Positions 43,444-63,077 of a stretch of 64,000 nucleotides of DNA are shown piece after piece (the stretch's first letter is position 1; each line of letters begins with the position of its first letter). The position numbers and the translations under genes are program-made. The notes beneath the pieces were generated by a model. It was given only the letters and a program-made list of their open reading frames with translations. It was not told the DNA's origin and ran no database searches. The stretch comes from Clostridiales bacterium (GTDB taxonomy: Bacteria; Bacillota; Clostridia; Oscillospirales; CAG-382), in contig QAKH01000079.1 of assembly GCA_003343885.1 (NCBI GenBank), positions 60,607-124,606 of the forward strand, read 5' to 3'.

Positions 43444-44766
43444 ATGAGTTCGGATACGGTGTACAGTACCGGGTGGAATTTATTAAATGTGAGCACGAGT
43501 ATGGATAATCGGCGAATTTTGAATGATCGACGTATTACACGTGATGAAGTTCTATCTTCATTGGTCAATTTGCGTCAATTAACCTTTGAGGTTACCGATG
43601 CATGTAACCTGCAATGCAAGTATTGCGGGTACGGCGACTTATATTTCGGGTACGACAAACGCGAAACGAAATTTCTGGCATTCGAACAAGGCAGGATCCT
43701 TCTCGATTATCTCGTGTCTTTGTGGCGCACATGTCCAGCACATTCTGCCGCACCGCGAACTTATCTCAGTTTTTATGGCGGAGAACCGTTGATGAACATG
43801 GATTTCATCACGCGCATGGTCGATTATGTCGAAAAACTCGATGTGCATAGAAATTTCAATTTTTCGATGACGACCAACGCCATGTTGCTCGATCGCTATA
43901 CGGACTATCTTGTCGAGAAGCGTTTTCACTTGTTGATCAGTCTCGATGGCGATAAATATGGACAAAGTTACAGGGTAACTCATGACGGGAAGAATTCGTT
44001 CGATCGGGTCTATAAAAACGTAAAGGACCTACAGGCGAAATATCCGGACTATTTTACCCGATATGTAGAATTCAATGCCGTGCTTCATAACCGCAACAGC
44101 GTTGCCCGAACACATGATTTCATCATGCGCGAATTCGGGAAGAAACCGACCATATCGGAACTGAACAATTCGGGGATTCGTCCTGATAAGGTGGAGGAGT
44201 TCCAGCAAACCTACCGGAACATGATCGAGAGTTTGCACGAATCGGAAAACTACGAAAAACTTGCTGAAGAGATGTTTGTGGCAGAACCTAATACACATGA
44301 TTTGCTATTGTATTTGCACCAATACAGCGGGAACGTGTTCAGGGACTACAACAGCCTTTTCCTGGACGAATCCAAACTGCACTACACTCCAACGGGAACC
44401 TGTTCTCCATTCAGTAAGAAACTGTTCGTTACGGTCAATGGCAAAATTCTGCAATGCGAGCGCATAGATCATAAATTCGCTCTCGGACAGTTATCTGCAA
44501 ATGGAGTTTCCCTCGACTTGGATGCTATCGTAGCACGATTCAATGGCTATCTGGAGAAACTGCAACGTCAGTGTTCGCTCTGTTACAGGAAAAGAAGTTG
44601 TATTCAGTGTATGTACTATATTGAGGATCTGGACGCGACACAACCAATCTGCCGCGGCTATATGAACCAAGAGACATTCGAACAGTATTCGTCGTATTGT
44701 TTGGCTCATCTCGCCCGTCATCCGCATTTGTACAAGAAGTTGATGGAAGATGTTTTGATAGACTAA
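43444..44766 (+). CDS. Radical SAM/SPASM peptide maturase (GG-Bacteroidales type)
   Basis: CNLQCKYC (CxxxCxxC) lies in FEVTDACNLQCKYCGYG. C-terminal SPASM-like Cys clusters are present (CSPFSKKLFVTVNGKILQCE; CSLCYRKRSCIQCMY). GG-leader precursor genes sit adjacent. Confidence 0.85.
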   Translation: MSSDTVYSTGWNLLNVSTSMDNRRILNDRRITRDEVLSSLVNLRQLTFEVTDACNLQCKYCGYGDLYFGYDKRETKFLAFEQGRILLDYLVSLWRTCPAHSAAPRTYLSFYGGEPLMNMDFITRMVDYVEKLDVHRNFNFSMTTNAMLLDRYTDYLVEKRFHLLISLDGDKYGQSYRVTHDGKNSFDRVYKNVKDLQAKYPDYFTRYVEFNAVLHNRNSVARTHDFIMREFGKKPTISELNNSGIRPDKVEEFQQTYRNMIESLHESENYEKLAEEMFVAEPNTHDLLLYLHQYSGNVFRDYNSLFLDESKLHYTPTGTCSPFSKKLFVTVNGKILQCERIDHKFALGQLSANGVSLDLDAIVARFNGYLEKLQRQCSLCYRKRSCIQCMYYIEDLDATQPICRGYMNQETFEQYSSYCLAHLARHPHLYKKLMEDVLID

Positions 44767-44778
44767 ATTGCGAATCCC

Positions 44779-45996
44779 ATGAAACAGAAACTTACGCTTT
44801 CTCCCGATACATTTCTTTGGCGAAAAGGAACGGAAGGCTTGTTATACGAGTCGGCGCGAGAAACCATGTTCCATTTCAACGTAACGGATTCGATCAGAGA
44901 ATTATGCCGAGTATTCGAGGATTATGATAATTTGTATTCCGCATCGTTCGATCCGGAAACTCTCGATAATGATGCACGGTCATTCATCAATGAAATCACA
45001 ACCCGGGGATTCGGCCGGATTACATCTTCTGAAACTCCGATTATTTCTCTGCCGCCGATGCTCAATATTCAGCACGACATCAAACGGCTGAAGAAGGATC
45101 CGGAGCGTGAGATCGGAGAAAATGTTTTGGAATATCTGTCTTCTTTAACCATATACATCGGAGGTCTATGTTGTAACAAGTCTTATTTCAAACAGATTAT
45201 TTATCCGATCTGTTCGGAGGAGCATCTGAGCAGTGAAACGATTGTTCGATTCTTGGACAAAGTATGGACTCCGTCGCTGCAGAGAATCAATTTGGTCGTT
45301 TCGGATGTTACCGATCGAGAGATCATCCAGATGGAGCAACGTTTGAAGGCATATAAAGAACAAATCGTATTCTATGTTCTCTATGCGGGTTTACATGATA
45401 AAACAACTGCGCCATATACGCTCGCTAAAGCCGGATATAGGGTACGTTTCATCTGCGAACAGCCAGACAATGTGCCGAAGGCATTCGACATGGAAAAGCC
45501 GATGGAAAAAGAACAGCGGTTGTCGCTCCCGTTCGGATACGATTTAATCGTCCGGAACGACCGCGAATACAGAGAATGGAGTGAACTGGTGGAAAAACTT
45601 GAAGTGAAAGACTTTGCAATGGTTCCGGTATATGACGATAACAAGGAATTTTTCGACTGCAACGTATTCCTTTCCGAAGCGGACATTAAACAAATCCGAT
45701 TGTCCCGTCGCGAAATTTTCGCTCACCAGGCAGTCAATATCGAAGCATTCGGTAATTTGATAGTAATGCCTGACGGCCGGATTTATTCGGATGTAACGGC
45801 GCCGTCTCTCGGGACGATCGACGATTCGATATACGATCTAATCGTCCGTGAATTGCAAGAGAATTATGCATGGCGAAAAATTCGCGACTCCGAATCCTGC
45901 AAGAATTGCGTTTATCAGTGGTTATGTCCGTCGCCGTCGCCATATGAACGAGCCACCGGGAAAAAGACGGTTTGTACGTTCCGAGAAAACGGATGA
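44779..45996 (+). CDS. Pseudo-rSAM / SPASM-remnant protein (paralogue lacking CxxxCxxC)
   Basis: 405 aa directly after the maturase. No CxxxCxxC is present. The C-terminal CKNCVYQWLCPSP is a SPASM-like remnant. It matches my recollection of the pseudo-rSAM partner family of GG-Bacteroidales systems. Confidence 0.65.
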   Translation: MKQKLTLSPDTFLWRKGTEGLLYESARETMFHFNVTDSIRELCRVFEDYDNLYSASFDPETLDNDARSFINEITTRGFGRITSSETPIISLPPMLNIQHDIKRLKKDPEREIGENVLEYLSSLTIYIGGLCCNKSYFKQIIYPICSEEHLSSETIVRFLDKVWTPSLQRINLVVSDVTDREIIQMEQRLKAYKEQIVFYVLYAGLHDKTTAPYTLAKAGYRVRFICEQPDNVPKAFDMEKPMEKEQRLSLPFGYDLIVRNDREYREWSELVEKLEVKDFAMVPVYDDNKEFFDCNVFLSEADIKQIRLSRREIFAHQAVNIEAFGNLIVMPDGRIYSDVTAPSLGTIDDSIYDLIVRELQENYAWRKIRDSESCKNCVYQWLCPSPSPYERATGKKTVCTFRENG

Positions 45997-46003
45997 GTTT
46001 CAT

Positions 46004-46097
46004 GTTCGGGCTTGCCATCCGAATATGAAGAGCCACCCCGCGAGGAAGCAAAACCGAGTGCGACAGCCAATAAGTTTAACTAAAACACAGAAAGGCA
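46004..46097 (+). repeat. Precursor-upstream element, copy 1 (two hairpins plus 50-nt core at 46048..46097)
   Basis: Core gcaaaaccgagtgcgacagccaataagtttaactaaaacacagaaaggca. It ends 123 nt before the ATG at 46221 and starts 8 nt after the upstream stop. Confidence 0.85.
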
Positions 46098-46220
46098 TCA
46101 AGAGACGAAACAATTCTCCGGATTTCGGAATAGGATTTGGCGAACGACGGATACGGACACTCCGTCGCAGGACAAAAATCCGATAAAAATCTGTTGTATA
46201 AAACTTAAAACTCGAGAACC

Positions 46221-46472
46221 ATGAAATCGCTCAAGGTAAATCAGATCGAAAAGGCACGCCTTTCAAAAACGGAAATGGCTTACGTCACTGGAGGTGAAAG
46301 TTGTGGTTGTGCATGCCTGTATGCCGATTCGGGAGGGTCATCGACAGCGAGCAACAAGAATGCGAATGCAGCCAGCGGTTTGCATTCGCCCGGTATGCTT
46401 CACATCACAGGCTATATGAATGAAGATGGATCATGGACCCTGTGTGATAAGTGGGTACTTATAGCTAAGTAA
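46221..46472 (+). CDS. GG-leader peptide precursor A1 (25-aa leader, 58-aa core)
   Basis: MKSLKVNQIEKARLSKTEMAYVTGG | ESCGCACLYADSGGSS... The double-glycine leader is nearly identical to those of A2 and A3. Confidence 0.85.
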   Translation: MKSLKVNQIEKARLSKTEMAYVTGGESCGCACLYADSGGSSTASNKNANAASGLHSPGMLHITGYMNEDGSWTLCDKWVLIAK

Positions 46473-46500
46473 TCCATGGAATCTTAATAGATTGTATTTC

Positions 46501-46586
46501 AAACGCAAAATCAATTATATCTCATTATGCCCAAATGAATCCTTATCCCATCGGAGAGCATGATAAGGTTGATTGGTTTTGCGTTT
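46501..46586 (+). terminator. Nested hairpin structure just after precursor A1 (attenuator/stabiliser candidate)
   Basis: aaacgcaaaatcaat pairs with attggttttgcgttt (15 bp with one G-U). The inner pair is ccttatc/gataagg. No clear U-tract follows. Confidence 0.45.
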
Positions 46587-46611
46587 TGATCCCGTATAAA
46601 ATCATTCAGTT

Positions 46612-47799
46612 ATGAGCAAGTTCCTATACCCCCTGCTGCTCCTGCAATTCGTCGTGGTTTCCTGTTCGTCGCACGGACAGACGCCGCCGGCTGCCGACAA
46701 CACGAATTTGCGCATCGATCAGGACAGAATCATTACCCCCGTCGTAATCAACGCAACGGATACGCTCGAAATGCTGTTCGATACGGGATGCTTGGTCGGC
46801 TGCATGCTGCCGCAGTCGCTCGCCGAAAATTACGCCGACTCTCTGACCGTTACGCAGCCCGGAGCCGTCGTATCGCATATCGCGGTCAAGGATATATCGC
46901 TCGGCGGCCAATCGCTGAACGACAACAGGATTTACCATGTTCCCGACGAAGAGTTTGACGTTGTCGGGCCCGTCGACTTGCCATGTGTTATTGCTCCGGC
47001 GTATGCTACCGAAGAACGAATTTGGTGTTTCGATTTCGATAACCGCATGTTTTCCATTCGCGAGACGGACACCTTGCCCGAGAACGCCATTGTTTATCCA
47101 TTGCTATTTGCGAAGTATAAGGACCGGAAGATCGCTCCGTTCGTCAATATTCCGATGACCTTGTCTTACGGCGACCGCTCTTTGTCGACGGATTATGTCT
47201 ATCTGCTCGACACCGGCACGCCGTACGGATTCTGCATTACGGACCCTCCGGCAGAGCTGGAAGATTTCGTTTCGCGCATTCCCCATTGGAAAATCGAGGA
47301 TCGTTTTAGCGCGGAGATTCCCGACCGGCAGCATTTGGATTTCGAAGTCGACATCGATATGCCGCCCTTTGTCCTGCCGGACGTGCGCTGTGATTTCGAT
47401 ACGGGATTGAGAAGCTTTGCAGAAGAATTCAAGAACTTTCTTCCCGGTATCGGCAAACCGATCGTAGGCACGCTCGGCATGCGCATACTCAAGCATTTCA
47501 ATATGATCCTCGATTTCAGGAACGACCGGCTCATACTCACTCCGGCACAGCGTACCTATCCCTCCAAACCGGTGAACCGGACAGGGTTCTGGTGCGATTC
47601 GCAAGGGGTGGTAACGAGAATCCGCACGAACGATGCTGCCTACGGGCAAGGGCTTCGTCTCAAAGACACCGTTATGACCGTCGACGGCATCCGGTGGACC
47701 GACATCCCCGAGGAGAAGAGGGAAGATATATATTCTACGGAAGAGCGTACCGTCTGGGAAATCCGTTCAGCGGATGGAACCAAAAAGATAATCATCTGA
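46612..47799 (+). CDS. Lipoprotein with two retropepsin-like DTG motifs and a C-terminal PDZ-like domain
   Basis: Signal/lipobox LLLLQFVVVSC. The two motifs are LFDTGC and LLDTGTP. The C-terminal GLRLKDTVMTVDGIRW is PDZ-like. Confidence 0.6.
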   Translation: MSKFLYPLLLLQFVVVSCSSHGQTPPAADNTNLRIDQDRIITPVVINATDTLEMLFDTGCLVGCMLPQSLAENYADSLTVTQPGAVVSHIAVKDISLGGQSLNDNRIYHVPDEEFDVVGPVDLPCVIAPAYATEERIWCFDFDNRMFSIRETDTLPENAIVYPLLFAKYKDRKIAPFVNIPMTLSYGDRSLSTDYVYLLDTGTPYGFCITDPPAELEDFVSRIPHWKIEDRFSAEIPDRQHLDFEVDIDMPPFVLPDVRCDFDTGLRSFAEEFKNFLPGIGKPIVGTLGMRILKHFNMILDFRNDRLILTPAQRTYPSKPVNRTGFWCDSQGVVTRIRTNDAAYGQGLRLKDTVMTVDGIRWTDIPEEKREDIYSTEERTVWEIRSADGTKKIII

Positions 47800-47831
47800 A
47801 AACGGACTGCGGATAACCCGCCGGAGTTTCA

Positions 47832-47921
47832 TGCGGCTTTGCCAGCCCGACAAAAAACTTCCCGCGGGGAAACAAAACCGAGTGCGACAGCTCATAAGTT
47901 CAACTAAAACACAAAAAGGCA
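47832..47921 (+). repeat. Precursor-upstream element, copy 2 (core 47872..47921)
   Basis: Core acaaaaccgagtgcgacagctcataagttcaactaaaacacaaaaaggca. It ends 124 nt before the ATG at 48046. Confidence 0.85.
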
Positions 47922-48045
47922 GCAAGAGGTAATATAATTCTCCGGATTTCGGAGCAGGATTCGGAGAACAGCGGATCCGGATAACTCCGTCGCAAGGCAA
48001 AAATCCGATAAAAATCTGTTGTATAAAACCTAAAACACGAGAACC

Positions 48046-48291
48046 ATGAAATCGCTTAAAGTGAATCAGATCGAGAAAAACAACCTTTCGGAAAAGGAAA
48101 TGAGCAGCGTCAAAGGTGGAAATGTCTGCAATTGCGCCTGTTATTATCGAAATGTCGGCGGCTCCTCCATCGAGGCGAACGGACAGGCCAATTGGGCTGG
48201 AAATAAAAATTCGATTCATAAAACAGTCGACTCAGCCCTTATGATAGATGATGGCAATGGAGGTTGCCGTGATTTTTGGCGAACGAAATAA
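48046..48291 (+). CDS. GG-leader peptide precursor A2 (25-aa leader, 56-aa core)
   Basis: MKSLKVNQIEKNNLSEKEMSSVKGG | NVCNCACYYRNVGGSS... Confidence 0.85.
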   Translation: MKSLKVNQIEKNNLSEKEMSSVKGGNVCNCACYYRNVGGSSIEANGQANWAGNKNSIHKTVDSALMIDDGNGGCRDFWRTK

Positions 48292-48358
48292 TGAGACTTA
48301 TCAATAACTATATAAGCTATAGTATATTGGAGAGTTTACATTGAAGCGGACGATTATC

Positions 48359-49594
48359 ATGTTTCGGATACTCATTATTTTCATTCTGTTCCTCGCTTCG
48401 GCCTGCATCCGTCGGGACGAAGGAGCGCAGTCGCACGTTCCGGTATGCACCCTCGAACCCGCAGCTGCGAGATTCGAGTACGACATGATAGGACATCCGG
48501 TCATCGAAACGAAGTTGGATTCCGCTCATACGTGTAAGCTGATTTTCGATACGGGAAGTGCCGGAATGCTCGTCCTGGACAAGTGCTTTGCAGAAAAGAG
48601 CGGCCTGATCGACCGGTTCCGCCCTACGGAGACACTGAAGTCGGGATGGGATTTCAGGCGAGACATTCCCAGCATGACCGTGGAGCACCCCGTCTCGATA
48701 TCGATCGGGAATAGTCGGGTCTGCTATTCCGAATGTCGGATCGTGGACGGGCGCTCTTTGAACATGCTTGCGGCCGACGGCATTTTCTCCATTCCGCTCG
48801 AAGAGACCCGCACGTGGGAGCTCGACTGCGAAAACAAATGCCTCGCCGTATACGATTGGCCCGTTTTCTCGTTGCCGGGTATCTCCTTGCAGCTGGATGT
48901 CGTCGGGAACCAGTTCGTTATCCGGGATTTCCCGTTTCGGTTTCATTGCCGGAACGAATACGTGCGGCCACGGGTCGATTTGGTATTGGATACCGGAAGC
49001 CCCGCATCCCTCGTCTATCTGTATGCCGAGCCCGACAGTACGATGCGTGCGGTCCTGAACGACGAGACCACACGCAAATACGTCTGTCCTTCCAAGAACG
49101 GAGTCTTACCGACTTGCTATCGGCTGAATGAATATGGATTATTGAACCGCAAATTATGGATCGAGCACCGCGAACTGTTGCGTCCGTGGCGTATTTCGGG
49201 AGAGCGCGAGATGGTTGTGGCAGGCATGGACTTTTCGAAGTCGTTCAATCTGCGGTTCCATCCGGCCCGACACCGTATCGAACTGTTCCCCATCGCATAC
49301 GTCTCCCTGCAGGAGGATCAGAGCCGGCAGGAAGGGATGGCCGGATTCTGTTTCCGGGCTTTCCAAAGCAGGGAGGGGCACGCCGTAGTCGATTTCGTGA
49401 AGGAAGGATCGTATTGGCAGGATTTCGGTGTGGAAGAAGGGGATGTGATTCTCGATGTGGACGGTCGGCGGTTGTTCGACCTTCCCCGCTCTTATTTCGA
49501 CGAAACAGAATCCGAGCATTCGTTTACGATCGTTCGGGACCGGGATACGCTGTTCATCCGTTCCGGAACACCTCCGACCAGCGGAACCCCATGA
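48359..49594 (+). CDS. Paralogous double-DTG aspartic-protease-like lipoprotein with a PDZ-like C-terminus
   Basis: The ATG at 48359 (the track TTG is at 48341) gives MFRILIIFILFLASAC. The two motifs are IFDTGSAG and VLDTGSPAS. The C-terminal GVEEGDVILDVDGRRL is PDZ-like. Confidence 0.6.
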   Translation: MFRILIIFILFLASACIRRDEGAQSHVPVCTLEPAAARFEYDMIGHPVIETKLDSAHTCKLIFDTGSAGMLVLDKCFAEKSGLIDRFRPTETLKSGWDFRRDIPSMTVEHPVSISIGNSRVCYSECRIVDGRSLNMLAADGIFSIPLEETRTWELDCENKCLAVYDWPVFSLPGISLQLDVVGNQFVIRDFPFRFHCRNEYVRPRVDLVLDTGSPASLVYLYAEPDSTMRAVLNDETTRKYVCPSKNGVLPTCYRLNEYGLLNRKLWIEHRELLRPWRISGEREMVVAGMDFSKSFNLRFHPARHRIELFPIAYVSLQEDQSRQEGMAGFCFRAFQSREGHAVVDFVKEGSYWQDFGVEEGDVILDVDGRRLFDLPRSYFDETESEHSFTIVRDRDTLFIRSGTPPTSGTP

Positions 49595-49608
49595 CTTCCA
49601 TTCGTATC

Positions 49609-49702
49609 ATTCGGACTTGCCATCCGAATATGAAGAGCCACCCCGCGAGGAAGCAAAACCGAGTGCGACAGCTCATATGTTCAACTAAAACACAGAAAGG
49701 CA
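49609..49702 (+). repeat. Precursor-upstream element, copy 3 (core 49653..49702)
   Basis: Hairpin attcgga-cttgcca-tccgaat followed by core gcaaaaccgagtgcgacagctcatatgttcaactaaaacacagaaaggca. It ends 121 nt before the ATG at 49824. Confidence 0.85.
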
Positions 49703-49823
49703 GTGCAGAGATAGAGTTATTTTCCGGATTGACGGAATGTTACCCGGAAAACGGCAGATTGAATCGTTCTGACGAAAAACAAAAGTTTCAGTTGTGATGT
49801 ATAACCTGTAAAAAACGAAGATT

Positions 49824-50072
49824 ATGAAATCGCTCAAGGTAAATCAGATTGAAAAAAACAATCTTTCGGAAAAGGAGATGCAACACATAGCCGGGGGCAA
49901 ACCAGCAGGAATGTGTGGTTGCGGCTGTATGTATGAGGGCCATGGCGGGTCTTCATCCATGGACAACGGACTGGCAAATGCCGATACCGGAATTTGGACC
50001 GGGGATAAATTCACATGCATCCAGTCCGTAATCGTCGTAGCTAAAAGGAAGGACAATTTAACTACCGAATAG
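49824..50072 (+). CDS. GG-leader peptide precursor A3 (25-aa leader, 57-aa core)
   Basis: MKSLKVNQIEKNNLSEKEMQHIAGG | KPAGMCGCGCMYEGHGGSS... Confidence 0.85.
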   Translation: MKSLKVNQIEKNNLSEKEMQHIAGGKPAGMCGCGCMYEGHGGSSSMDNGLANADTGIWTGDKFTCIQSVIVVAKRKDNLTTE

Positions 50073-50112: not shown

Positions 50113-50128
50113 ATAAAAACTTTTGCTT

Positions 50129-51064: not shown

Positions 51065-51073
51065 ATTTTTCCG

Positions 51074-53394: not shown

Positions 53395-53406
53395 ATAGAA
53401 CTCGGG

Positions 53407-54422: not shown

Positions 54423-57074
54423 ATGCGTACACTCCCGATACTTTTTGTTGCCTTGCTGCTCCTCGGAACCGCCGAAAATCTCCGGGCTCAGGAGCGAATA
54501 ATCATCAGCGGTACACTCCGCGATGCGGCGACGTCGCGTCCGGTGGAGAGTGCGAACGTGCTGTTGCAGGACACGGCCCGGCGTGCCGTGTACAATTATG
54601 CCATCACGGGCGACGACGGCGTCTACCGGCTCGAATATCGGGGCGATGCCGACTCGCTGGCGGTGGCGGTTACGGGATTCAACATCCATGAAGAGGTGCG
54701 TTTCGTCGCGGCACGGACGCAGCGGGTGGATTTCGCAGTCAGGGAAAACCCGACCGAAATTCGCGAAGTGATAGTCAGGGCTCCGGCCGTTACGCGCCGT
54801 CGGGATACGCTGACCTACACGGTGGCCAAATATGCCGACGTGACGGACCGCTCGATCGGGGACGTGCTGCGGAAGATGCCGGGCATCGAGGTGGCGAAGT
54901 CGGGCGAGGTCAAATACAACGGCAAGGCGATCAACAAATTCTACATCGAGGGTCTGGACATGCTCGAAGGGCGCTACGGCATCGCGACGAACAACGTGCG
55001 GGCACAGGACATCGCCTCGGTCGAGGTCTACGAGAACCACCAGCCGATCAAGGCGCTCAAGGACCTCGTCGCCTCGAACCAAGCGGCCCTGAATCTCAAG
55101 CTCAAGAAAGAGGCCAGGGGGACGTGGAACTCCACGCTCCAACTGGGCGCGGGCTACAAGCCGTGGATGTGGAACGCCGAGGCGACGGCGATGTACTTCG
55201 GCCGCAATTTCCAGACGATTGACACCTACAAGACCAACAACACGGGCGACGACGTCTCGCGCGAATTGACGAGTTTCTACGACGGTCTGGACGCCACCTC
55301 GTCGCTCTTGGGCATACACCGTCCGACCGAGCCTTCGCTCGACAAGGAACGGTACCTCGACAACGAGATCCATACCGTCTCGACGAACGCCATCGTCAAA
55401 TTGCGCAAGGATCTCGAACTGACGGCCAACGCCCATTACATCCACGATTTCCAGACCTCGGAGGGCGGGTCCATAACAACCTACTACCTGCCCGATGCCG
55501 TACCGCTCGTGATCGAGGAACAGACCTTTGCCGACCGCCGCACCGACCGCACGGAGGTGAACCTGCAGCTGCGCTCGAACACCGAGCGACACTACCTTCA
55601 GGAGAAGCTGACCTTCGGCGGTCAGTGGGACACCGACTACGGGCGGGTAGTGAACGACGGCGAGCGGGTCGACCAGCGCTTCCGGCTTCCGAAGATCACG
55701 CTGCGGAACCTCTTCACCGGCGTGCGGCGCTGGAGCCGCTGGGCGGTGAACTTCCGCTCGGAGACCGACTACACGACGCAACCGACGTCGCTGCGCATCC
55801 GCCCGATGCTCTACCCGGAAGTCTTCGACGCCCCGGCGGATTATCCCGATGCGCTCCAGACGCTCGACAGCCGGCGCTTCCGCACCCGTAACTCGGCCTT
55901 TACCTCCTATATCGTGGGGCGGTGGAATTTCACGCTCAATGCGGCGCTCAACGCGCAGGCGGAGCGTATGGAATCGGCACTCTCGGCCATGAACGCCGCG
56001 GGCGCAACCCTCCCGGCGCCCGACACCCTGCGCAACGACATCTACTGGCGGCGTCTGGACTTCGTCGCGGGGCCGAGCGTCGGCTACCATATCGGCGACC
56101 GCTTCTCGGCGACCCTCTATGTGCCGCTGGACTTCATGTCGCTGCGTACCGAAGACCGCAATCTCGGCCGGACCGTTACGGACAACCGCCTGCTCATCAC
56201 CCCATCGCTGTCGCTGCAGTCGAACCTCACCTACAACCTCAAGTTCTCGGCCCGGGCATCGTACAACGAGCTGATCGGCGGACTGTACGACACTTACAGC
56301 GGCTACATCCTCTCCGACTACCGGATGATCGCCAGCAAGGAGGGCGACATCAGCCGCACGCGCATGCAGAACTATACGGCGTCGCTCACCTACGGCAATG
56401 CCATCCGCGCACTGTTCGGTTCGATCGACGCATCCTACTATCGCTCCGAGCGCAACCTTATCTACGGCACGACATACGAAGGGTCGTTGAGCCGCATCGA
56501 GGCCATTGCGATGGACAACAGCTCGGACGGCTTCAGCGTCAGCGGCAAGATCAGCAAGCGTTTCGACGGCATCTCGACGACGGCGAACCTCTCGGGAGGG
56601 TTCTCGCGCTCGTGGAGCGAGGTGCTGCGGCAGGGGGTGCTGATGCCGACCCGCTACGACATGGCCTCGGCCGGGCTGGGCTTCAATACGCAGTTCACGA
56701 ATGCCGTGCGGATGGATTATACGGCGGAATACCGACGCAGCATGAGCCGGATCGACGGTGCGGCGCTCGATCCGATCGACGTGCTGCGGCAGGATGTCGC
56801 GGTGAACTTCATCATCCGCAAGCGTTGGATCTGCCGCCTCGGAGGCGAACACTATTACAATGCCGCAATCGGCGGGACGGACCGGCACATGTTTTTCCTC
56901 GACGCCTCGCTCACATGGAAAACCGAGCGCATGGAGTACGGCATCGAAGCCCGGAACCTGCTGGACTGCGGTGCGTTCCGCTCTGCTTTCCAGTCCGATA
57001 TTACGGATTACGTATATTCCTACCGTCTGCGACCTGCATCGGTGATGTTCACGATCAAGTTCAGTTTGAGATAA
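54423..57074 (+). CDS. TonB-dependent-receptor-like outer-membrane barrel with a carboxypeptidase-regulatory-like N-domain
   Basis: The Met at 54423 gives a signal peptide (MRTLPILFVALLLLGTAENLRAQ). An IISGTLRD...DGVYRLEY Ig-like domain follows. A plug-like segment is present (SIGDVLRKMPGIEV...KFYIEGLDM). The long remainder has an alternating beta-pattern and ends in an aromatic-containing terminal strand (VMFTIKFSLR). Confidence 0.7.
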   Translation: MRTLPILFVALLLLGTAENLRAQERIIISGTLRDAATSRPVESANVLLQDTARRAVYNYAITGDDGVYRLEYRGDADSLAVAVTGFNIHEEVRFVAARTQRVDFAVRENPTEIREVIVRAPAVTRRRDTLTYTVAKYADVTDRSIGDVLRKMPGIEVAKSGEVKYNGKAINKFYIEGLDMLEGRYGIATNNVRAQDIASVEVYENHQPIKALKDLVASNQAALNLKLKKEARGTWNSTLQLGAGYKPWMWNAEATAMYFGRNFQTIDTYKTNNTGDDVSRELTSFYDGLDATSSLLGIHRPTEPSLDKERYLDNEIHTVSTNAIVKLRKDLELTANAHYIHDFQTSEGGSITTYYLPDAVPLVIEEQTFADRRTDRTEVNLQLRSNTERHYLQEKLTFGGQWDTDYGRVVNDGERVDQRFRLPKITLRNLFTGVRRWSRWAVNFRSETDYTTQPTSLRIRPMLYPEVFDAPADYPDALQTLDSRRFRTRNSAFTSYIVGRWNFTLNAALNAQAERMESALSAMNAAGATLPAPDTLRNDIYWRRLDFVAGPSVGYHIGDRFSATLYVPLDFMSLRTEDRNLGRTVTDNRLLITPSLSLQSNLTYNLKFSARASYNELIGGLYDTYSGYILSDYRMIASKEGDISRTRMQNYTASLTYGNAIRALFGSIDASYYRSERNLIYGTTYEGSLSRIEAIAMDNSSDGFSVSGKISKRFDGISTTANLSGGFSRSWSEVLRQGVLMPTRYDMASAGLGFNTQFTNAVRMDYTAEYRRSMSRIDGAALDPIDVLRQDVAVNFIIRKRWICRLGGEHYYNAAIGGTDRHMFFLDASLTWKTERMEYGIEARNLLDCGAFRSAFQSDITDYVYSYRLRPASVMFTIKFSLR

Positions 57075-57084: not shown

Positions 57085-58629
57085 ATGAATATGAATCGTA
57101 CCATACCGTCTTTGCTGCATCTTTTTCTGCGAAAGCTGTGCATGCGCATCGACCTGCTTCGGATTCGGGAGGCGTATGCCGACCATCCTCTGCCGCGCAG
57201 CATCCGGTCGCTCAGCGACACGCTGGATGAGTTGCATGTACCCAACATGGTATGCCGACTGGAGTTCGGGCAGCTCTTCGAGATCGAGGGTCCGTTTGTC
57301 GTCAAGGCAGGAGAGGAGGAATATCCTTTCTTTCTGGTAGAATCGCTCGACCGCGAGCGGCAGGTGATCGGTCTGCGCACGGTTGCGGGCCGGCGTCTCG
57401 AAGTTCCGTTCGATAGCTTCCGCGCACTATGGGACGGCACGGTGCTCTTGGCTGAAAGAGGCGAAGAGACGAAAGAGACCTCCGTACCGGTATATTGGAT
57501 CAGGCAGGGGTTGGCGTTTCTCGACCGGTCATGGGGCTATTGGCTCGTCGGGCTGTGTGCCGTGCTGCCGTCGGTCATCGCGCTGCGTTCGCCCGACCTT
57601 GCGGATTCCCGTTTCTTAGTAAAAACGGCGGGCGTCGTCGTTTCGCTCGTGGCCATCGTCAAAGCCTCGTTCGACCCGCATCTTGTGCAGCGGTTCTGCC
57701 GTCTCGGGAAACATTCGGATTGCAATGCGGTTTTCCGTTCGGCCGGGGCGAAGCTCTTCGGATGGATCTCGCTCGGCGAATTGTCGTTGACTTATTTTGT
57801 CGCATCGCTCGTATGGGGCGTATTCGTAGCGACGAATCCCGCGTCTGTATTCCTCGGGCTCGACATATTGGCATTGCCGTTCGTCGGCTATTCGCTGATT
57901 TGGCAAATCCGCCGGAGACAGTGGTGTACGCTGTGTCTTGCGATCGATGCCATCCTACTGACCGATTTCGGGGCGGAATTGCTTCTTCAGAATACTGCGA
58001 CAGCAGCCAGTCGGCCGTTCCTGCTTTTCGACTGGCTGACTTTCGGTGTGTGTTTCGCTATCGCAATGCTGGCTATACGGCGCATCGTCGTGACGGTAGA
58101 AGTCGCGGCGAAATATCCCCGCGAAAAGTATGCACGAGAGCGTTTGTTGTGCGACCCGGACCTCTTTTGGCAGTTGCTCGCCCGTCAGAACGAGGAGCCG
58201 GTTCACAGCGATGCCGCGTCTCCGACAAGCAATTTCGTCGAGGCCGAACATACCATAACGGTCGTAATGAATCCTTCTTGCCCGAAATGCGCCCGGGTCC
58301 ACCGGGCATTCCGTGGATTGGAAGATTATCGTATCGACTTGATATTTATCGTGAACGAAGGAGACAAGAGTTCCTTCGATGCGGCAGTGCGGATGATTTC
58401 ATCGGGGATTGTGAACGAATGGCCCCGAACCGACCGGATCATCGGCGAATGGTTCGACCGGAGAGTATTGCCGGATTGGCTCGGAATACATCCGTTAGCG
58501 GAGGCGGATTTACGGGAGCAGATGGAATACTGCCGCAAGATCGGCATTACGGGAACTCCGACGGTACTTATAGACAACCGACGTTTGCCGGACGTGTATG
58601 ACGTCGAAGATTTGAAAATATTATTATGA
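57085..58629 (+). CDS. Three-part fusion: C39-like (non-catalytic) N-domain, VKOR membrane domain and thioredoxin/DsbA-like domain
   Basis: The N-domain PFVVKAGEEEYPFFLVESLDRE...FRALWDGTVLLAE resembles the C39 fold but lacks the Cys/His motifs. The VKOR loop Cys pair is CRLGKHSDC and the active-site pair is CTLC, within 4-5 TM helices. The C-terminus has NPSCPKC (CxxC). Confidence 0.7.
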   Translation: MNMNRTIPSLLHLFLRKLCMRIDLLRIREAYADHPLPRSIRSLSDTLDELHVPNMVCRLEFGQLFEIEGPFVVKAGEEEYPFFLVESLDRERQVIGLRTVAGRRLEVPFDSFRALWDGTVLLAERGEETKETSVPVYWIRQGLAFLDRSWGYWLVGLCAVLPSVIALRSPDLADSRFLVKTAGVVVSLVAIVKASFDPHLVQRFCRLGKHSDCNAVFRSAGAKLFGWISLGELSLTYFVASLVWGVFVATNPASVFLGLDILALPFVGYSLIWQIRRRQWCTLCLAIDAILLTDFGAELLLQNTATAASRPFLLFDWLTFGVCFAIAMLAIRRIVVTVEVAAKYPREKYARERLLCDPDLFWQLLARQNEEPVHSDAASPTSNFVEAEHTITVVMNPSCPKCARVHRAFRGLEDYRIDLIFIVNEGDKSSFDAAVRMISSGIVNEWPRTDRIIGEWFDRRVLPDWLGIHPLAEADLREQMEYCRKIGITGTPTVLIDNRRLPDVYDVEDLKILL

Positions 58630-58645
58630 CAGAGGTCTTATCATG

Positions 58646-58744
58646 TCCCGAAGTCCTGCCCGCTCCGGGATATGAAAAACCTTCCCGCGAAAAAGAAAAA
58701 CCGAGTGTGACAGCTCATAAGTTCAACTAAAATGCAGAAAGGCA
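58646..58744 (+). repeat. Precursor-upstream element, copy 6 (core 58695..58744)
   Basis: Core gaaaaaccgagtgtgacagctcataagttcaactaaaatgcagaaaggca. It ends 121 nt before the ATG at 58866. Confidence 0.85.
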
Positions 58745-58865
58745 CCGCAAAAGTAACATTATTTTCCGGATTAACGGAATGTTATCCGGGAAACGACGGT
58801 TATAGGACATCCGTCGAAACGAAAAAGTCTGGAAACTTTTTGTTTCATACTCAAAAACTACAATT

Positions 58866-59084
58866 ATGAGAACCATGAAAAATTTTGCTGCACAGCAGCT
58901 CTCGATGCAGCAGATGATGCAAATCCTCGGAGGAAAGTATCAAGTCAGTGTTTATGCAGCAGATGGACGTTTCCTCAATCGTATTACCGTTGACGGTGTG
59001 AGCAGTTCCCGCGAAGCTGCAGAATTGGTGCTTTCTCTCTATGGGCCGGGACATTATGCGATTGCCGGTCGTATAGTAGAATAG
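58866..59084 (+). CDS. GG-leader peptide precursor B3 (23-aa leader, 49-aa Cys-free core)
   Basis: MRTMKNFAAQQLSMQQMMQILGG | KYQVSVYAADGRF...AIAGRIVE. Confidence 0.8.
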   Translation: MRTMKNFAAQQLSMQQMMQILGGKYQVSVYAADGRFLNRITVDGVSSSREAAELVLSLYGPGHYAIAGRIVE

Positions 59085-59094: not shown

Positions 59095-59129
59095 GGTTTA
59101 AGGCAACTTTTCATTGGTTGCCTTAAACC
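59095..59129 (+). terminator. 13-bp hairpin just after precursor B3
   Basis: ggtttaaggcaac-ttttcattg-gttgccttaaacc. Confidence 0.5.
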
Positions 59130-59157: not shown

Positions 59158-60030
59158 ATGAAACAGTTTATCTTAATCGTATTCTTAATCCATGCGGGAC
59201 TCTCATCTGCCCAAGACCGGTTTTTCTATCTCGGGCAGCCGTATATCTACAAGGATTCAGTGTTGCTCGATCAAAGTCGGTTGAATCTGATCTATCGGCA
59301 CGAATTCCGTGTCGACACATCCGCTTCGCCGATGTGGAGTAATGTGAAGATGCAGGTCGGACGGAAGGTCGTCAAGCAGACCGACCTGCATGTCTATTTT
59401 ACGAATCTATGGCGTAAAATCTCGGAGGAGACTCCCGGCATCGTGCCGGATCGAGAGCAGGCGGAGTTGATATCGAACGGGAATTGCAATCATCCATATT
59501 TTGCAGAAATGACGATGTTCCCATCCGAGAACGCACTACGGATTACGTGCTGCAATTACCTTCTGGGAAGCCACTCCGGTCCGTTTGTCTATGACGAATC
59601 CATCCCGGAGATGGAATGGCAACTGCTCGACGGTGCAGACAGCGTGGCCGGTTATGCGTGCAAAATCGCCCAGACCCACTTTCGGGGAAGGGTTTGGAAA
59701 GCGTGGTATACGCTACAAATTCCTATCCCTACAGGTCCGTGGAAACTACACGGATTGCCGGGAATCATTCTACGCGCTGTCGATCAAACAGGAACCTACT
59801 CTTTTGAGTGTATCGGAATCGAAACTGACCCGCAGTCGATATACGAGTATGTCCCGATGAGGTCGACGGCCGTAACGCGCACTCAATATCTGCGCTACGA
59901 GCGCAGGTATCATGAAGACCCGCAAAGCGTGCGGGGCGATGCTGCCGATATTTTCAAACTGGGACAAGACGGTGTAACGAATATCGATACCGATTGGCAA
60001 ATCCCGTATTATCCGATAGAATTTGAATAA
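59158..60030 (+). CDS. GLPGLI-family secreted protein
   Basis: Signal peptide MKQFILIVFLIHAGLSSAQ. The signature is GYACKIAQTHFRGRVWKAWYTLQIPIPTGPWKLHGLPGIILRA. Confidence 0.75.
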   Translation: MKQFILIVFLIHAGLSSAQDRFFYLGQPYIYKDSVLLDQSRLNLIYRHEFRVDTSASPMWSNVKMQVGRKVVKQTDLHVYFTNLWRKISEETPGIVPDREQAELISNGNCNHPYFAEMTMFPSENALRITCCNYLLGSHSGPFVYDESIPEMEWQLLDGADSVAGYACKIAQTHFRGRVWKAWYTLQIPIPTGPWKLHGLPGIILRAVDQTGTYSFECIGIETDPQSIYEYVPMRSTAVTRTQYLRYERRYHEDPQSVRGDAADIFKLGQDGVTNIDTDWQIPYYPIEFE

Positions 60031-60048
60031 AAGATAAATTTATACCAT

Positions 60049-60128
60049 TTCCCCACTACACCCAACTCGGTGTCATGGATTGCTGCCTGACGTCGCTGCG
60101 GATCGTCGCGCAGTTCTACGGCCGGCAC
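60049..60128 (+). pseudogene. Decayed duplicate of the first ~80 nt of the C39-ABC transporter gene
   Basis: It aligns to 60807..60887 with one indel and about 8 substitutions, and the last 39 nt (60089..60127 vs 60848..60886) are identical. The ATG is lost (ataccA vs atgagg). DCGPT has changed to DCCLT. It ends in TAA at the breakpoint. Confidence 0.8.
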
Positions 60129-60800
60129 TAAGAGATTTCTGAACGCGTGAGAAGATAGACGATCTGAGCCTTCGGGTTGGTTATAACTTCAGCTATCTAA
60201 GCCGATACTGTTTAGGGGTTCAGTTATTCTGAGCCCTTTATCTTGAGAATAGGTAGACAAATGCACTTCCTTGGAAAAGGTATTTTGATTCACCTCTACA
60301 TCATTTCTGTTGTATGTATTTTTTGTATATCAATATAATTATTTAATTTTAATTCAAAACACATTTAGGTTTGCCAATAAATTCATTAAGGCAATAAATA
60401 TATATTTATCAGGTGATTACATTGTGCAAATCGCAAGATGTGTAATTTTTATAGGCAAATATAGTATATCTAAAATTATTTTTGTATATTCGTTCTCAGA
60501 TACTATTTATAGTTAATGATGAGCCATAATATTCACGTACCCCATTGTTGAGCATTGCTTATCCGTTACCCGATTCGGAGGTTAAGATCATCGGGTTCGG
60601 GGCATATCACGGTTCGGCGAAAACCGAGACTGCCGAACTTATTGTCCTCGAACGGTTGATCGAAGCAAAGCGGCTCGGCTGCCACTATAGATGTTTGGGA
60701 CAATCCTCTTAGATGTAATATGCTAATTACAGATACACTGAAGTTGATTGAATCTGATGTACATAAGATAATACGACACTAAACTATCGAAAATGTTTTT

Positions 60801-63077
60801 ATGAGGTTCCCTCACTATACCCAACTCGATGCAATGGATTGCGGCCCGACGTCGCTGCGGATCGTCGCGCAGTTCTACGGCCGGCATTACTCGCTGCAAA
60901 ATCTGCGCGAGCGGTGCCACATCACGCGCGAAGGCGTCTCTCTGCTGGGGATCAGCGATGCTGCGGAGTCGATCGGTTTCCGTACTACGGGCGTCAAGAT
61001 CACGTGGCATCAACTGCGCGACGAAGCCAACCTGCCGTGCATCGTCCACTGGAACCAGCAGCATTTCGTGGTGGTCTACAGAATCGCCCGCAAACGCGGT
61101 AAATGGTGGGTATATGTCTCCGATCCGGCATCGGGACTGCTCAAATACACCGAGGAGCAGTTTCTGAAGGCATGGATACAAAGTCGGGAACTGCCGAACC
61201 GCACGGAATCGGCCGCTCGCCCGCAGCAGGAAGTCCCTTCGCTCGCTTCCGCCGATTTCCTTGCCGGCCCGGCCAACGGCAAAGGCATCGCCCTGTTGCT
61301 GGAGCCTACGCCCCAATTCTACAAGGAAAAGGGCGACGAGGACAAGCGGCTGAAACTGGGTTATCTGCTGCAATATCTGCGGCCCTATAAAAACTACCTT
61401 GCACAGCTCGCGCTGGCGATGCTCACAGCCAGCATACTGAGCCTTATCCTGCCGTTCCTCACACAGTCGGTCGTCGACAAGGGCATCGGTACGGGCAATC
61501 TCTCGTTCGTGGTGATGATGCTCATCGCCCAAGTGGTGCTGGTGTTGGGCCAGTTGGCCAATAACCTCATCCGCTCGTGGCTGATGCTACACATGACCAC
61601 CCGGATCAGCATTTCGCTCATCTCGGACTTTTTGGCCAAGCTCATGCGTCTTCCGATCGCCTTCTTCGATTCGAAGATGGTGGGCGACATCATGCAGCGC
61701 ATCGGCGACTACGACCGCATTCAGTCGTTCCTCACGGGCTCGTTGCTGAGCATGGCGATGGCCGTCGTGTCGTTCGTCATCTACGGAGCCGTGATGGGCG
61801 GCTACGACCCGACGATTCTCGGCATCTTCCTGTTGGGCAGTGCACTCTACATCGGCTGGATCCTGCTCTTCATGAAGCGTCGCCGCAAGCTCGACTACAT
61901 GCGCTTCCAAGAGGCGGCAGCCAACCAGAGCAACATCGTGCAGCTCATCAATGGTATGCAGGACATCAAACTCAACGACTGCGAAAAACAGAAACGCTGG
62001 GAATGGGAGCGCATTCAGGCGCGGCTGTTCCAAGTCTCCATCAAAGGGCTCGTTCTGGGGCAGACGCAGGAGGTGGGCGGCACGTTCATCGACCAGACCA
62101 AGAACGTCGTCATCTCGTTCCTCGCAGCCTCGGCCGTCATCGAGGGCGATATGACCCTCGGCATGATGGTCGCCCTGCAATACATCATCGGTCAGCTCAA
62201 CGCACCGCTGTCGCAGTTCATCCAATTCGTGCAGGCGACGCAGGATGCGAAGATCTCGCTCGAACGCCTTTCGGAAATTCAGGAGAAAGACGACGAGGAG
62301 CCGGCCGACGAAGAACGCATCCGCATGATTCCCGACAATGCCGACATCGAATTCCGGGGCGTAACGTTCCAATACGACGGCCCGCACTCGGCCAAAGCGC
62401 TCGACGACGTGTCGGTAACGATCCCGGCGGACAAGGTTACGGCCATTGTCGGGGCGAGCGGCTCGGGGAAGACCACGATGCTCAAGCTGATGCTGGGCTT
62501 CTACACGCCGACCTCGGGCGAAGTGCTGCTCCATGACCGCCGCATCGCGCAGTACAGCCCGTCGTGCTGGCGCCGGGCATGCGGTACGGTCATGCAGGAG
62601 GGATACATCTTTTCGGATACCATAGCCGGTAATATCGGCGTCTCGGACGAACGGCCCGACATGGAGCGGGTGCGCCGCGCCACGCGCATCGCCAACATCG
62701 ACACCTTCATCGACGAACTGCCCTTGGGCTACAACACGAAGATCGGTGCCGACGGACACGGACTGAGCGTCGGGCAGAAACAGAGGCTTCTGATCGCGCG
62801 GGCCGCCTACAAGGATGCGAAGTACCTCTTCTTCGACGAGGCGACCAACTCTTTGGACGCGAACAACGAACGCACGATCATGGAGCGCCTCGACCGGCTC
62901 TTCGAGAACAAGACGGTCGTGGTGGTGGCGCACCGCCTCTCGACGGTCCGCAATGCCGACAAAATCGTCGTATTGGACCACGGACGCATCGTCGAACAGG
63001 GTACGCACGACGAGCTGACGGCCAAACGGGGATATTATTACGAACTGGTGAGAAATCAGTTGGAATTGGGAAATTGA
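60801..63077 (+). CDS. Bacteriocin/RiPP-processing ABC transporter with an N-terminal C39 peptidase domain
   Basis: The C39 catalytic Cys lies in QLDAMDCGPTSL and the His in HWNQQHFVVVY. Six TM segments are present. Walker A GASGSGKTT, signature LSVGQKQR and Walker B LFFDEATNSLD. Confidence 0.9.
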   Translation: MRFPHYTQLDAMDCGPTSLRIVAQFYGRHYSLQNLRERCHITREGVSLLGISDAAESIGFRTTGVKITWHQLRDEANLPCIVHWNQQHFVVVYRIARKRGKWWVYVSDPASGLLKYTEEQFLKAWIQSRELPNRTESAARPQQEVPSLASADFLAGPANGKGIALLLEPTPQFYKEKGDEDKRLKLGYLLQYLRPYKNYLAQLALAMLTASILSLILPFLTQSVVDKGIGTGNLSFVVMMLIAQVVLVLGQLANNLIRSWLMLHMTTRISISLISDFLAKLMRLPIAFFDSKMVGDIMQRIGDYDRIQSFLTGSLLSMAMAVVSFVIYGAVMGGYDPTILGIFLLGSALYIGWILLFMKRRRKLDYMRFQEAAANQSNIVQLINGMQDIKLNDCEKQKRWEWERIQARLFQVSIKGLVLGQTQEVGGTFIDQTKNVVISFLAASAVIEGDMTLGMMVALQYIIGQLNAPLSQFIQFVQATQDAKISLERLSEIQEKDDEEPADEERIRMIPDNADIEFRGVTFQYDGPHSAKALDDVSVTIPADKVTAIVGASGSGKTTMLKLMLGFYTPTSGEVLLHDRRIAQYSPSCWRRACGTVMQEGYIFSDTIAGNIGVSDERPDMERVRRATRIANIDTFIDELPLGYNTKIGADGHGLSVGQKQRLLIARAAYKDAKYLFFDEATNSLDANNERTIMERLDRLFENKTVVVVAHRLSTVRNADKIVVLDHGRIVEQGTHDELTAKRGYYYELVRNQLELGN

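Follow-up and report, generated by a model that had tools for sequence, protein, structure and literature searches.

Several known systems come close to the locus described here. Clusters combining a radical S-adenosylmethionine (rSAM) enzyme of family TIGR04148, a protein of family TIGR04150 and a double-glycine (GG) precursor peptide of family TIGR04149 have been listed as sactipeptide-like in Bacteroides fragilis and B. uniformis; genome-mining papers are the only ones to mention this trio (PMC4573289). As late as 2023, modified bacteriocins from Bacteroidales were described as elusive (PMC10352776), and our literature searches, later papers included, returned no experimental characterisation of the trio. 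Also close are the bacteroidetocins (class IIf), whose loci encode a GG peptide, a thiol oxidoreductase and an ATP-binding cassette (ABC) transporter with a C39 peptidase domain (C39-ABC), and which kill Bacteroidales (PMC6671954, PMC8546649). We analysed a stretch of 64,000 nucleotides (the window) from contig QAKH01000079.1 of assembly GCA_003343885.1, deposited as 'Clostridiales bacterium'. It carries, from 43.4 kb to its end and with all genes on the + strand, an island in which six GG-peptide cassettes lie between an rSAM gene pair and a C39-ABC gene. The host of this array is a gut Alistipes. An earlier note on this DNA, made from the letters alone, had taken the product, its chemistry and its role to be uncharacterised, and the literature searched bears this out.

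The array shares with the GG-peptide rSAM clusters the three families, all represented above cutoff, and the C39-ABC exporter; in B. uniformis an ABC exporter is reported together with a hemolysin-secretion (HlyD-type) protein, with no mention of TolC (PMC4573289). The published clusters have three to five genes and one precursor, whereas six precursors with two leader classes are present here, each with its own partner gene, RNA leader and hairpin. With the bacteroidetocins, the array has in common GG leaders of the kind cut and exported by C39-ABC, an encoded thiol oxidoreductase, a producer among gut Bacteroidales, and Cys-containing peptides of roughly 45-50 aa. Bacteroidetocin loci differ in having four genes and a single peptide, with neither an rSAM enzyme nor an immunity gene; their leaders are 15 aa long, compared to 23-25 aa here, and their target, BamA, is known. 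A cassette consists of an RNA leader of about 190 nt, a precursor whose GG leader is conserved and whose core is hypervariable, a strong 3' hairpin, and a cognate partner gene. We lean, with modest confidence, towards the view that the locus is a polymorphic, bacteriocin-like array of GG-peptide cassettes whose cognate partners are probably protective.

The six small ORFs with GG-ending leaders, one per cassette, were correctly described in the earlier note; for the fifth, a start further inside its ORF is the most likely one. Three form class A: precursor A1 (46221..46472, 83 aa), with the leader MKSLKVNQIEK...TGG and a core ESCGCACLY..GGSS.. followed by a variable tail; A2 (48046..48291, 81 aa), with the core NVCNCACYY..GGSS; and A3 (49824..50072, 82 aa), with the core ..GMCGCGCMYEGHGGSS.... 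They score 33.8, 45.8 and 42.5 bits, respectively, with the TIGR04149 model (GG_sam_targ_CFB, cutoff 25 bits), and they are the only ones of the six to pass it. Class B has a leader of the type MK(S/T)MK(D/N)FAAQQL...GG, unlike that of class A. It comprises B1 (51291..51512, 73 aa, leader MKSMKDFAAQQLSKKQMNDVKGG), just below the cutoff at 24.2 bits and with one Cys near each end of its core; B2 (53182..53394, 70 aa, core WRCLVVTKW...GIVC), at 16.3 bits; and B3 (58866..59084, 72 aa, leader ending in ILGG, core KYQVSVYAADGRF...), which matches no family, has no Cys in its core, and is found as an identical peptide in many loci. The B2 ORF opens at 53131 (53131-53394), and the start at 53182 (MKTNMKNF...) is the most likely one, because it alone lies about 37 nt past the upstream element, as in the other copies. 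A Pfam search with the six precursors gave nothing meaningful. The proposed grouping of maturase, pseudo-rSAM and GG precursor as a recognised trio is upheld by the three families TIGR04148, TIGR04149 and TIGR04150, and is limited by the fact that only the three CxCxC precursors pass TIGR04149.

In class A peptides, the arrangement GG..CxCxC(Y/F)..GGSS followed by a variable tail was found in 20 of 23. The second conserved double glycine (GGSS) of A1-A3 lies 12-17 residues past the leader GG, and the CxCxC block might be a separate short segment that is freed or removed by a second cleavage. Among class B cores, 26 of 34 have a Cys both within the first 10 and within the last 8 residues, and 4 of 34 have none. 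For this class, disulfide formation without rSAM chemistry and modification by the rSAM enzyme seem equally likely; the former is considered because of the sub-cutoff precursor scores, the Cys near each end, and the adjoining genes for thiol-disulfide enzymes. A single maturase serving both core families, as suggested earlier, is one possibility of two.

A conserved element of about 190 nt, which the earlier note had missed, precedes each of the six precursors. The copies lie at 45997..46185 (starting 1 nt past the pseudo-rSAM stop codon), 47824..48010, 49602..49792, 51067..51255, 52953..53146 and 58641..58834, and score 160.1, 157.4, 174.2, 184.1, 177.8 and 183.5 bits with a covariance model (R1) that finds six matches in the window (157-184 bits), on the + strand only. 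Repeat finding and alignment show a nearly invariant core, AAAACCGAGTGYGACAGCTCATAAGTTCAACTAAAACGCAGAAAGGCA, which also holds AAGUUCAACUAAAACGCAGAAAGGCA, and flanks that are about 60% alike. A degenerate pattern of the core has 6 matches in the window, compared to 0.00 expected. The taxonomic range is narrow: a strict pattern run on one-genome-per-species data hit only five stretches, from four Alistipes metagenome-assembled genomes (MAGs) and one Bacteroidales MAG. A looser pattern retrieved 107 metagenome stretches, and nhmmer 144 full-length copies (92 distinct), which precede 72 distinct peptides, nearly all with GG leaders and falling into at least five leader classes. R1 has 162 matches in 782 kb of related loci, some of them in DNA of 28-39% GC, and none at E up to 1 in a 67%-identical relative (L012). 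Weak R1 matches (28-29 bits; L006:16572-16739 and five alike) were seen before precursors that have no good copy of the element; divergent versions therefore exist, and the true range is wider than the patterns show. The element starts 0-64 nt past the upstream stop codon, and the spacer between its end and the AUG, composed of 50% A and 8% G, has a median length of 37 nt (interquartile range 35-39).

Single-sequence folds of the element contain recurring hairpins, named P1 (loop YUUGCCN), P2, a short P2b, P3 and P4. To assess covariation, a hand-drawn structure of five helices was applied to 47 representatives (less than 93% identical) in a MAFFT alignment that had not been fitted to it. This structure pairs 84.7% of cells, compared to 77.0% in shuffled alignments (0 of 500 shuffles reached 84.7%) and at most 56% in controls where it was slid along the alignment; the covariation score was 0.281, compared to 0.164 for shuffled and at most 0.161 for slid controls. 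Among 108 distinct copies, in an alignment that was fitted to the model and so leans towards the structure, both sides had changed at 27 of 32 pairs, and at 7 of the 8 pairs of the 5'-most hairpin. In paired columns, G·U combinations outnumber A·C ones by 411 to 122 (3.4 to 1), which argues that it is the + strand that folds, as RNA. RNAalifold recovered only fragments of the structure from plain MAFFT alignments, because the variable hairpins are misaligned in them. From these sequence comparisons, it is very likely that the element forms a real sense-strand RNA structure in the 5' region of the precursors.

Several other interpretations of the element were dismissed. A pseudoknot between the loop UGCC and a conserved GGCA was rejected, since the two sides hardly vary and the rare variants show no compensation, and a small ORF inside the element was rejected as well, since its start codon is absent in several copies and its frame is broken by indels. 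The candidate RNA HMP2_1881, described as 'near radical SAM' (PMC8040213), differs in sequence and is linked to an 'rSAM mobile pair'; the core of the element was not found in the 200 of 408 supplement files of that paper that could be searched, and may be present in the rest of the catalogue. Rfam covariance models gave no match over 40000-64000, on both strands and at E up to 1. The locus carries a candidate for a new RNA motif, in a system of a kind already known, if uncharacterised.

All six precursors are followed, within about 30 nt of the stop codon, by a stem-loop, another feature missed previously. The stem-loop after A2 is the weaker one, the other five being strong (z = -6 to -8). 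The hairpin after A1 (46499..46589) has a minimum free energy (MFE) of -31.4 kcal/mol (z = -6.3); that after A3 (50082..50112) is a GC-rich hairpin of 13 bp (MFE -23.4 kcal/mol, z = -6.9); that after B1 (51522..51549) is a perfect 12-bp hairpin (z = -8.3); and those after B2 (53398..53445, MFE -25.1 kcal/mol) and B3 (59095..59129, 14 bp) have z values of -7.0 and -8.0. For 73 distinct cassettes of other loci, the medians over the 70 nt past the stop codon were -22 kcal/mol for the MFE and -4.5 for z. Structured leader RNAs are known from long operons, for instance the EAR element of the Bacillus eps operon and the LoaP-dependent leaders, and precursor-gene hairpin attenuators from lantibiotic and sactipeptide operons, an arrangement usually held to fix the ratio of precursor to enzyme. 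The array resembles these in combining a structured element in a long operon with a hairpin past the precursor; it differs in that the element is repeated before every precursor, travels with the cassette, and has no counterpart in Rfam.

What the element does is a guess: it might process or stabilise the message, control how much transcription continues beyond the hairpins, or act as a switch. We put forward, tentatively and with somewhat less than even confidence, that it represents a new class of cis-acting RNA for GG precursors, forming with the hairpin a portable expression unit and serving in addition as a homology arm for the shuffling of cassettes between strains and mobile elements. 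Such an RNA might switch in response to a ligand or protein, work as a processive antiterminator, or mark a site of processing.

The inheritance of cassettes was examined by annotating the genes downstream of every element-linked precursor in about 100 related loci. Each core family was always followed by the same type of partner. The core ESCGCACLY goes with the first of two double-DTG proteins and NVCNCACYY with the second; GMCGCGCMYEG with one GLPGLI subfamily; AFCRAYSK, RKCTAVLK and ASCSGGKW with a TlpA-like protein; WRC(L/F)VVTKW with a GLPGLI protein and a barrel; AMNSAICVTT with a GLPGLI protein and a VKOR protein; and KYQVSVYAADGRF with a GLPGLI protein. Conversely, a GG-type small ORF lies directly upstream of about 80% of the partner genes. 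The idea that one precursor comes with its own accessory gene is strongly backed by this survey. Core and partner also diverge together: in a comparison of 58 distinct GLPGLI cassettes, partner identity was at least 82% where cores were at least 70% identical, and about 29% where cores were unrelated.

Cassette content varies between loci, and differs even upstream of a 100% identical ABC gene (L128 compared to L129). In Candidatus Alistipes excrementavium (L018:5241-7964), the rSAM gene is fragmented, and the pseudo-rSAM gene and the first precursor are missing, while the first double-DTG partner and three further cassettes are intact; this state could be an artefact of MAG assembly. A protective role fits such an orphan partner better than a processing role. 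Polymorphic toxin/immunity arrays and the multi-peptide class II loci of Gram-positive bacteria have, as here, a conserved N-terminal part (in the array the leader, to which class A adds the CxCxC..GGSS block) joined to a hypervariable C-terminal part, and the array also shares with polymorphic arrays the tie between a unit and a specific downstream gene, the strain-variable content, the orphan partner and the scars of rearrangement. In contrast with polymorphic toxins, the units here are small exported peptides with their own RNA leader, and the partners are secreted proteins or lipoproteins of several unrelated folds.

The partners of A1 (46612..47799) and A2 (48341..49594) are two lipoproteins, about 20-23% identical, with two DTG motifs and a C-terminal PDZ-like domain. 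Profile searches gave only sub-threshold Pfam matches (Asp_protease_2, E = 0.16, 13.1 bits compared to a cutoff of 24.3; PDZ, E = 0.05-0.12) and no NCBIfam match. The motifs FDTG (56-59) and DTGTP (200-204) are, however, invariant in 17 homologues, and an AlphaFold model (pLDDT 83, pTM 0.81) matches cathepsin D, proteinase A, plasmepsin and renin (E of about 1e-8, TM 0.4-0.5). By predicted fold only, these proteins are pepsin-like and bilobal; the annotation as double-DTG aspartic-protease/PDZ lipoproteins can accordingly be kept for its motifs and, through the model, for its fold, and lacks profile support. The family is very small, with 32 proteins in 5.8 billion clusters, Alistipes-like where named. 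A protease with a PDZ-like domain is also found in the nisin resistance protein NSR, a tail-specific serine protease of family S41 that inactivates nisin. By analogy, a protease joined to a PDZ-like, C-terminus-binding domain may serve as a peptide defence in the double-DTG lipoproteins too, with a predicted pepsin-like aspartic fold in place of the serine S41 protease.

Three further partners belong to the GLPGLI family (TIGR01200/PF09697, cutoff 50 bits), as had been proposed: those of A3 (50123..51064, with a signal peptide, 140.8 bits), B2 (53477..54373, 106.7 bits) and B3 (59158..60030, 114 bits). The A3 partner also has a weak match to the N-terminal domain of PNGase F-II. The B1 partner (51582..52889) combines DUF4369 with a TlpA/ResA-like thioredoxin fold, which confirms the TlpA-like thioredoxin of the earlier description. 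Between the B2 and B3 cassettes lie two more genes. The first (54423..57074, in an ORF opening at 54303) encodes a putative outer-membrane protein of the TonB-dependent-receptor type with a CarboxypepD_reg domain at 32.3 bits, exactly its cutoff, a plug-like segment at 18.3 bits (cutoff 23.9) and a long C-terminal region; the protein matched no barrel model and had no sequence match in the PDB, and its assignment as a TonB-type barrel is tentative. The pair of GLPGLI protein and barrel recurs in relatives. The second (57085..58629) is a fusion of VKOR (37.8 bits, cutoff 27.5) and Thioredoxin_4 (27.6 bits, cutoff 23.2), a membrane thiol-disulfide oxidoreductase whose identification stands, both Pfam domains being above cutoff. 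Its first 170 residues or so (57085-57600) match no family, and gene calls on other contigs place the start 2 or 19 codons further in, for products of 512 or 495 aa. Maturation of class B may well be the task of the thiol-disulfide proteins.

The array opens with an rSAM/SPASM peptide maturase of 440 aa (43444..44766) that matches TIGR04148 (GG_samocin_CFB) over its full length, at 527.9 bits for a cutoff of 300. The motif CNLQCKYC, of the CxxxCxxC type, and a Cys-rich SPASM C-terminus can be read from its translation, and the Pfam Radical_SAM domain is on record for an identical protein. A SPASM rSAM maturase had been predicted at this position, and the profile search places it in a family of peptide maturases. 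Its nearest solved structure by sequence is that of the thioether-forming CteB (5WGG, E = 5.5e-18), and its best family and structure matches are CcpM, lachnocin, RumMC, PapB and CteB, the families scoring far below their cutoffs.

The adjoining gene (44779..45996) encodes a TIGR04150 pseudo-rSAM (277.5 bits, cutoff 250) without CxxxCxxC and with four invariant C-terminal Cys. BLASTP shows no similarity between the two proteins (E = 5.5). The AlphaFold2 model of the pseudo-rSAM (pLDDT 87.6) has an rSAM/SPASM-like fold, and its top Foldseek matches are SuiB (5V1T, E = 3e-10), TigE, SkfB and EpeE, the first three of which align with it over the full length. Its N-terminal strand/helix domain resembles, in our reading of the model, a leader-recognition domain (RiPP recognition element, RRE). 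The protein, previously described as a paralogue lacking CxxxCxxC, does lack the motif; its kinship to rSAM maturases is visible by predicted fold only, and paralogy is not seen at the sequence level. The thioether-forming rSAM/SPASM maturases (CteB for ranthipeptides/SCIFF, CcpM, the sactisynthases) and SuiB are thus the best matches of the pair, with scores far below the family cutoffs; those thioether systems have no obligatory, catalytically dead, paralogue-like partner, whereas the array has one.

The C39-ABC exporter, a peptidase-containing ABC transporter (PCAT; 60801..63077), has three Pfam domains above cutoff, as expected from the earlier prediction: Peptidase_C39 (103.9 bits), ABC_membrane (101.9) and ABC_tran (98.2). 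The Cys of DCG, the His of HFVVV and SDPA can be read from its sequence; it is below the cutoff of all specific NCBIfam equivalogs (for example, 402 compared to 524 bits for TIGR01193), and an identical protein is present on at least 1000 public contigs. The exporter had been thought to close the array, which is not the case. A gene for a 410-aa secreted protein of no known family begins 26 nt past its stop codon, with its first 299 codons in the window (63103..64000), and the product is 100% identical to that of L128:10303-11535. Genes past the end of the window were read from contigs carrying the 100% identical ABC gene: there (L128:10303-17438), the 410-aa gene is followed by those for an HlyD-like adaptor (103.7 bits, model cutoff 208.7), a TolC-like channel (99.3 bits, model cutoff 225, with a Pfam OEP match on record), a B12-binding rSAM protein and a double Asp_protease_2 protein. 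The B12-binding rSAM protein has 625 aa and resembles C-methyltransferases of peptides that are made by ribosomes and modified after translation (RiPPs; 138 bits, cutoff 282), and the double Asp_protease_2 protein has 422 aa. Because HlyD-like and TolC-like genes follow the identical ABC gene on other contigs, the exporter is probably a complete tripartite system (PCAT, HlyD and TolC).

Upstream of the exporter gene lies a decayed copy of its own 5' end (60039..60130), 86% identical to its first 92 nt and with the ATG changed to ATA. It is followed by a promoter-like, AT-rich repeat (60445..60489, holding TATTTTTG) that is 80% identical to an AT-rich promoter-like stretch before the rSAM gene (43333..43382). 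The latter holds, at 43375-43382, TATATTTG, which we take to fit the Bacteroidetes -7 motif TAnnTTTG. The relic and the repeat look like the scar of a rearrangement that would have given the exporter its own promoter.

A mechanism can be proposed from these features. The array would be transcribed from the promoter before the rSAM gene, with a second, related promoter for the ABC gene. The 5' element and the 3' hairpin, which bracket the precursor, may produce a separately stabilised and translated message, and may set the extent of transcriptional read-through into the partner gene. The TIGR04148 enzyme would modify cores of the CxCxC type, for which thioether cross-links derived from Cys are the most probable chemistry, judged by homology only and below the cutoffs of CcpM, CteB and the sactisynthases; the catalytically dead TIGR04150 protein would probably be its leader-binding subunit. 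For class B cores, closure by a disulfide is more likely, with the TlpA-like and VKOR-thioredoxin proteins as its agents. Cleavage after GG would be carried out by C39-ABC, and export would then proceed through the HlyD-like and TolC-like proteins. The partners (GLPGLI proteins, pepsin-like/PDZ lipoproteins, possibly the TlpA-like protein) would protect the producer from its own peptides and those of its neighbours by binding, cleaving or reducing them in the periplasm. Finally, the common sequences of RNA leader and leader peptide may provide the homology for cassette swapping. Toxicity, like immunity, the chemistry and the role of the RNA, is something we infer, in its case from the hypervariable cores, the turnover of cassettes and the precedent of the bacteroidetocins; protection by the partners is favoured because four unrelated folds occupy one slot, each core has a divergent partner, and an orphan partner survives.

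Three other explanations compete with parts of this proposal. The partners might be helpers of maturation or secretion and not protective, which we consider unlikely. The pepsin-like/PDZ lipoproteins would then shorten the long tails at the C-terminus or cleave at the second GG (GGSS), disulfides would be made by the TlpA-like and VKOR proteins, and the GLPGLI proteins and TonB-type barrel would chaperone the peptides or pass them across the outer membrane. Helpers of this sort have a precedent, since the thiol oxidoreductase and a membrane protein of bacteroidetocin loci are needed for activity and give no protection (PMC6671954), and they would suit the second GG conserved in 20 of 23 A-type precursors, the catalytic DTG motifs retained by the protease partners, and the recurring pairs of GLPGLI protein and barrel. 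Yet a single slot filled by four unrelated families is what immunity genes typically show and processing steps seldom do, and generic export would not need partners as divergent as the 29% identity seen between core families; a dedicated HlyD/TolC route is encoded, and a partner persists intact where precursor and maturases have been lost. Also to be considered are peptides acting as signals, kin-recognition tags or scavenging ligands (for example, Cys-rich metal binders) that are exported and then recaptured, with the GLPGLI proteins and the TonB-type receptor as cognate parts for binding and uptake. The presence of a protein resembling TonB-dependent receptors, the Cys-rich cores, and the regulators and alpha-oxoamine synthase adjoining the operon would all have a place in such a scheme. 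We find it quite improbable, since 72 distinct peptides behind one leader RNA and the gain and loss of cassettes from strain to strain are signatures of conflict, most cassettes have no receptor-type barrel, and one core has no Cys at all.

The last alternative concerns the element, which might act as DNA: an alternative sigma factor or regulator might use it as an internal promoter or operator, or cassettes might be captured there by recombination, the hairpins being incidental. About 50 nt of the core are nearly invariant and unpaired, as in a protein-binding site; in a long array with a hairpin after each precursor, distal cassettes would need internal promoters or antitermination; and repeats could promote recombination. 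An action as DNA is nevertheless improbable in view of the both-side changes in the 5'-most hairpin (7 of 8 pairs), which begins 0-64 nt past a stop codon, and of the strand-specific, RNA-like excess of G·U over A·C. The core also contains no Bacteroidetes TTTG/TAnnTTTG (-33/-7) motif on reading its sequence, and no convincing ECF or sigma-54 spacing by eye; a scan for sigma-70-type promoters was at background (21 found, 17.3 expected), and all copies are in direct orientation, with no recombinase nearby in the part of the island within the window.

Several points weigh against a polymorphic array of toxins with protective partners and an RNA leader. The literature searched holds no activity, expression or mass data for any peptide of the family. 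Bacteroidetocin producers have no immunity protein (PMC6671954), so that a toxin locus of this phylum need not encode one. Should export through PCAT, HlyD and TolC avoid the periplasm, a part in maturation is hard to assign to disulfide enzymes located there, and the TonB-type receptor and GLPGLI proteins could equally serve uptake. The orphan partner is a case from one lineage, in a MAG, and the co-divergence of cores and partners is equally expected from simple linkage. As for the RNA, the structure was derived from the same sequences on which it was assessed, and the slid controls are somewhat favourable to it.

As to the setting of the array, GC content is 0.44 over 40-46 kb, compared to about 0.59 in the flanks. 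Within 43000-63000, it forms a mosaic of 0.44 in the maturase genes, 0.50-0.54 in most cassettes and 0.60 in the barrel and VKOR genes, which fits cassettes of differing origins. Three genes to the left of the rSAM operon share the low GC content of the island. A helix-turn-helix (HTH) regulator of the XRE/CI-like type (40116..40754, + strand, 212 aa; phrog_8 transcriptional regulator, E = 7e-6) lies at the low-GC left edge. It is followed by a weakly assigned TetR-like regulator of 236 aa (40913..41623, - strand; TetR_N, E = 0.031, below cutoff) and by an alpha-oxoamine synthase of the BioF/Kbl/serine palmitoyltransferase family (41878..43140, - strand), divergent from the rSAM operon. The synthase scores 361.6 bits with the bioF model and 336 bits with SPT-CFB, under every equivalog cutoff; it also matches a CqsA-type autoinducer synthase model (175 bits). 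These three genes also accompany the rSAM operon in a relative with an 84% identical rSAM protein and an otherwise different left flank, so that their synteny is seen in two species, and the TetR-like and synthase genes show synteny in related loci L001-3 and L006-8. Together, the three could form a small-molecule regulatory circuit for the island.

Directly to the left of the island, the window from 1 to about 40 kb is a prophage-like region. Besides a baseplate hub, its genes encode tail proteins, of which one has 2060 aa, SbcC/SbcD-like proteins, a DnaB-like helicase, a DnaE-type polymerase that is split, and RNase T. The end of a 66-kb IMG/VR contig falls within the island, at 99.3% identity to 43965-46196. 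Carriage of the island by a phage is not claimed, a relative having the same island beside ordinary chromosomal genes. One related locus sits on a conjugative element.

Although Bacteroidales dominate the human gut, their modified peptide bacteriocins are essentially uncharacterised. The locus offers a concrete unit, in which RNA leader, precursor and hairpin are joined to a partner, and dozens of natural core/partner pairs on which specificity can be tested. The association of an active rSAM enzyme with a catalytically dead look-alike raises the question of what the dead partner does, and the double-DTG lipoproteins are candidate immunity proteases with a predicted pepsin-like fold in bacteria. 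If the RNA motif, of which well over a hundred copies were found, does control the expression of precursors, no regulatory RNA dedicated to a family of peptide toxins would have preceded it. Finally, given that the exporter is present on at least 1000 public contigs, the system may shape competition between strains in many people.

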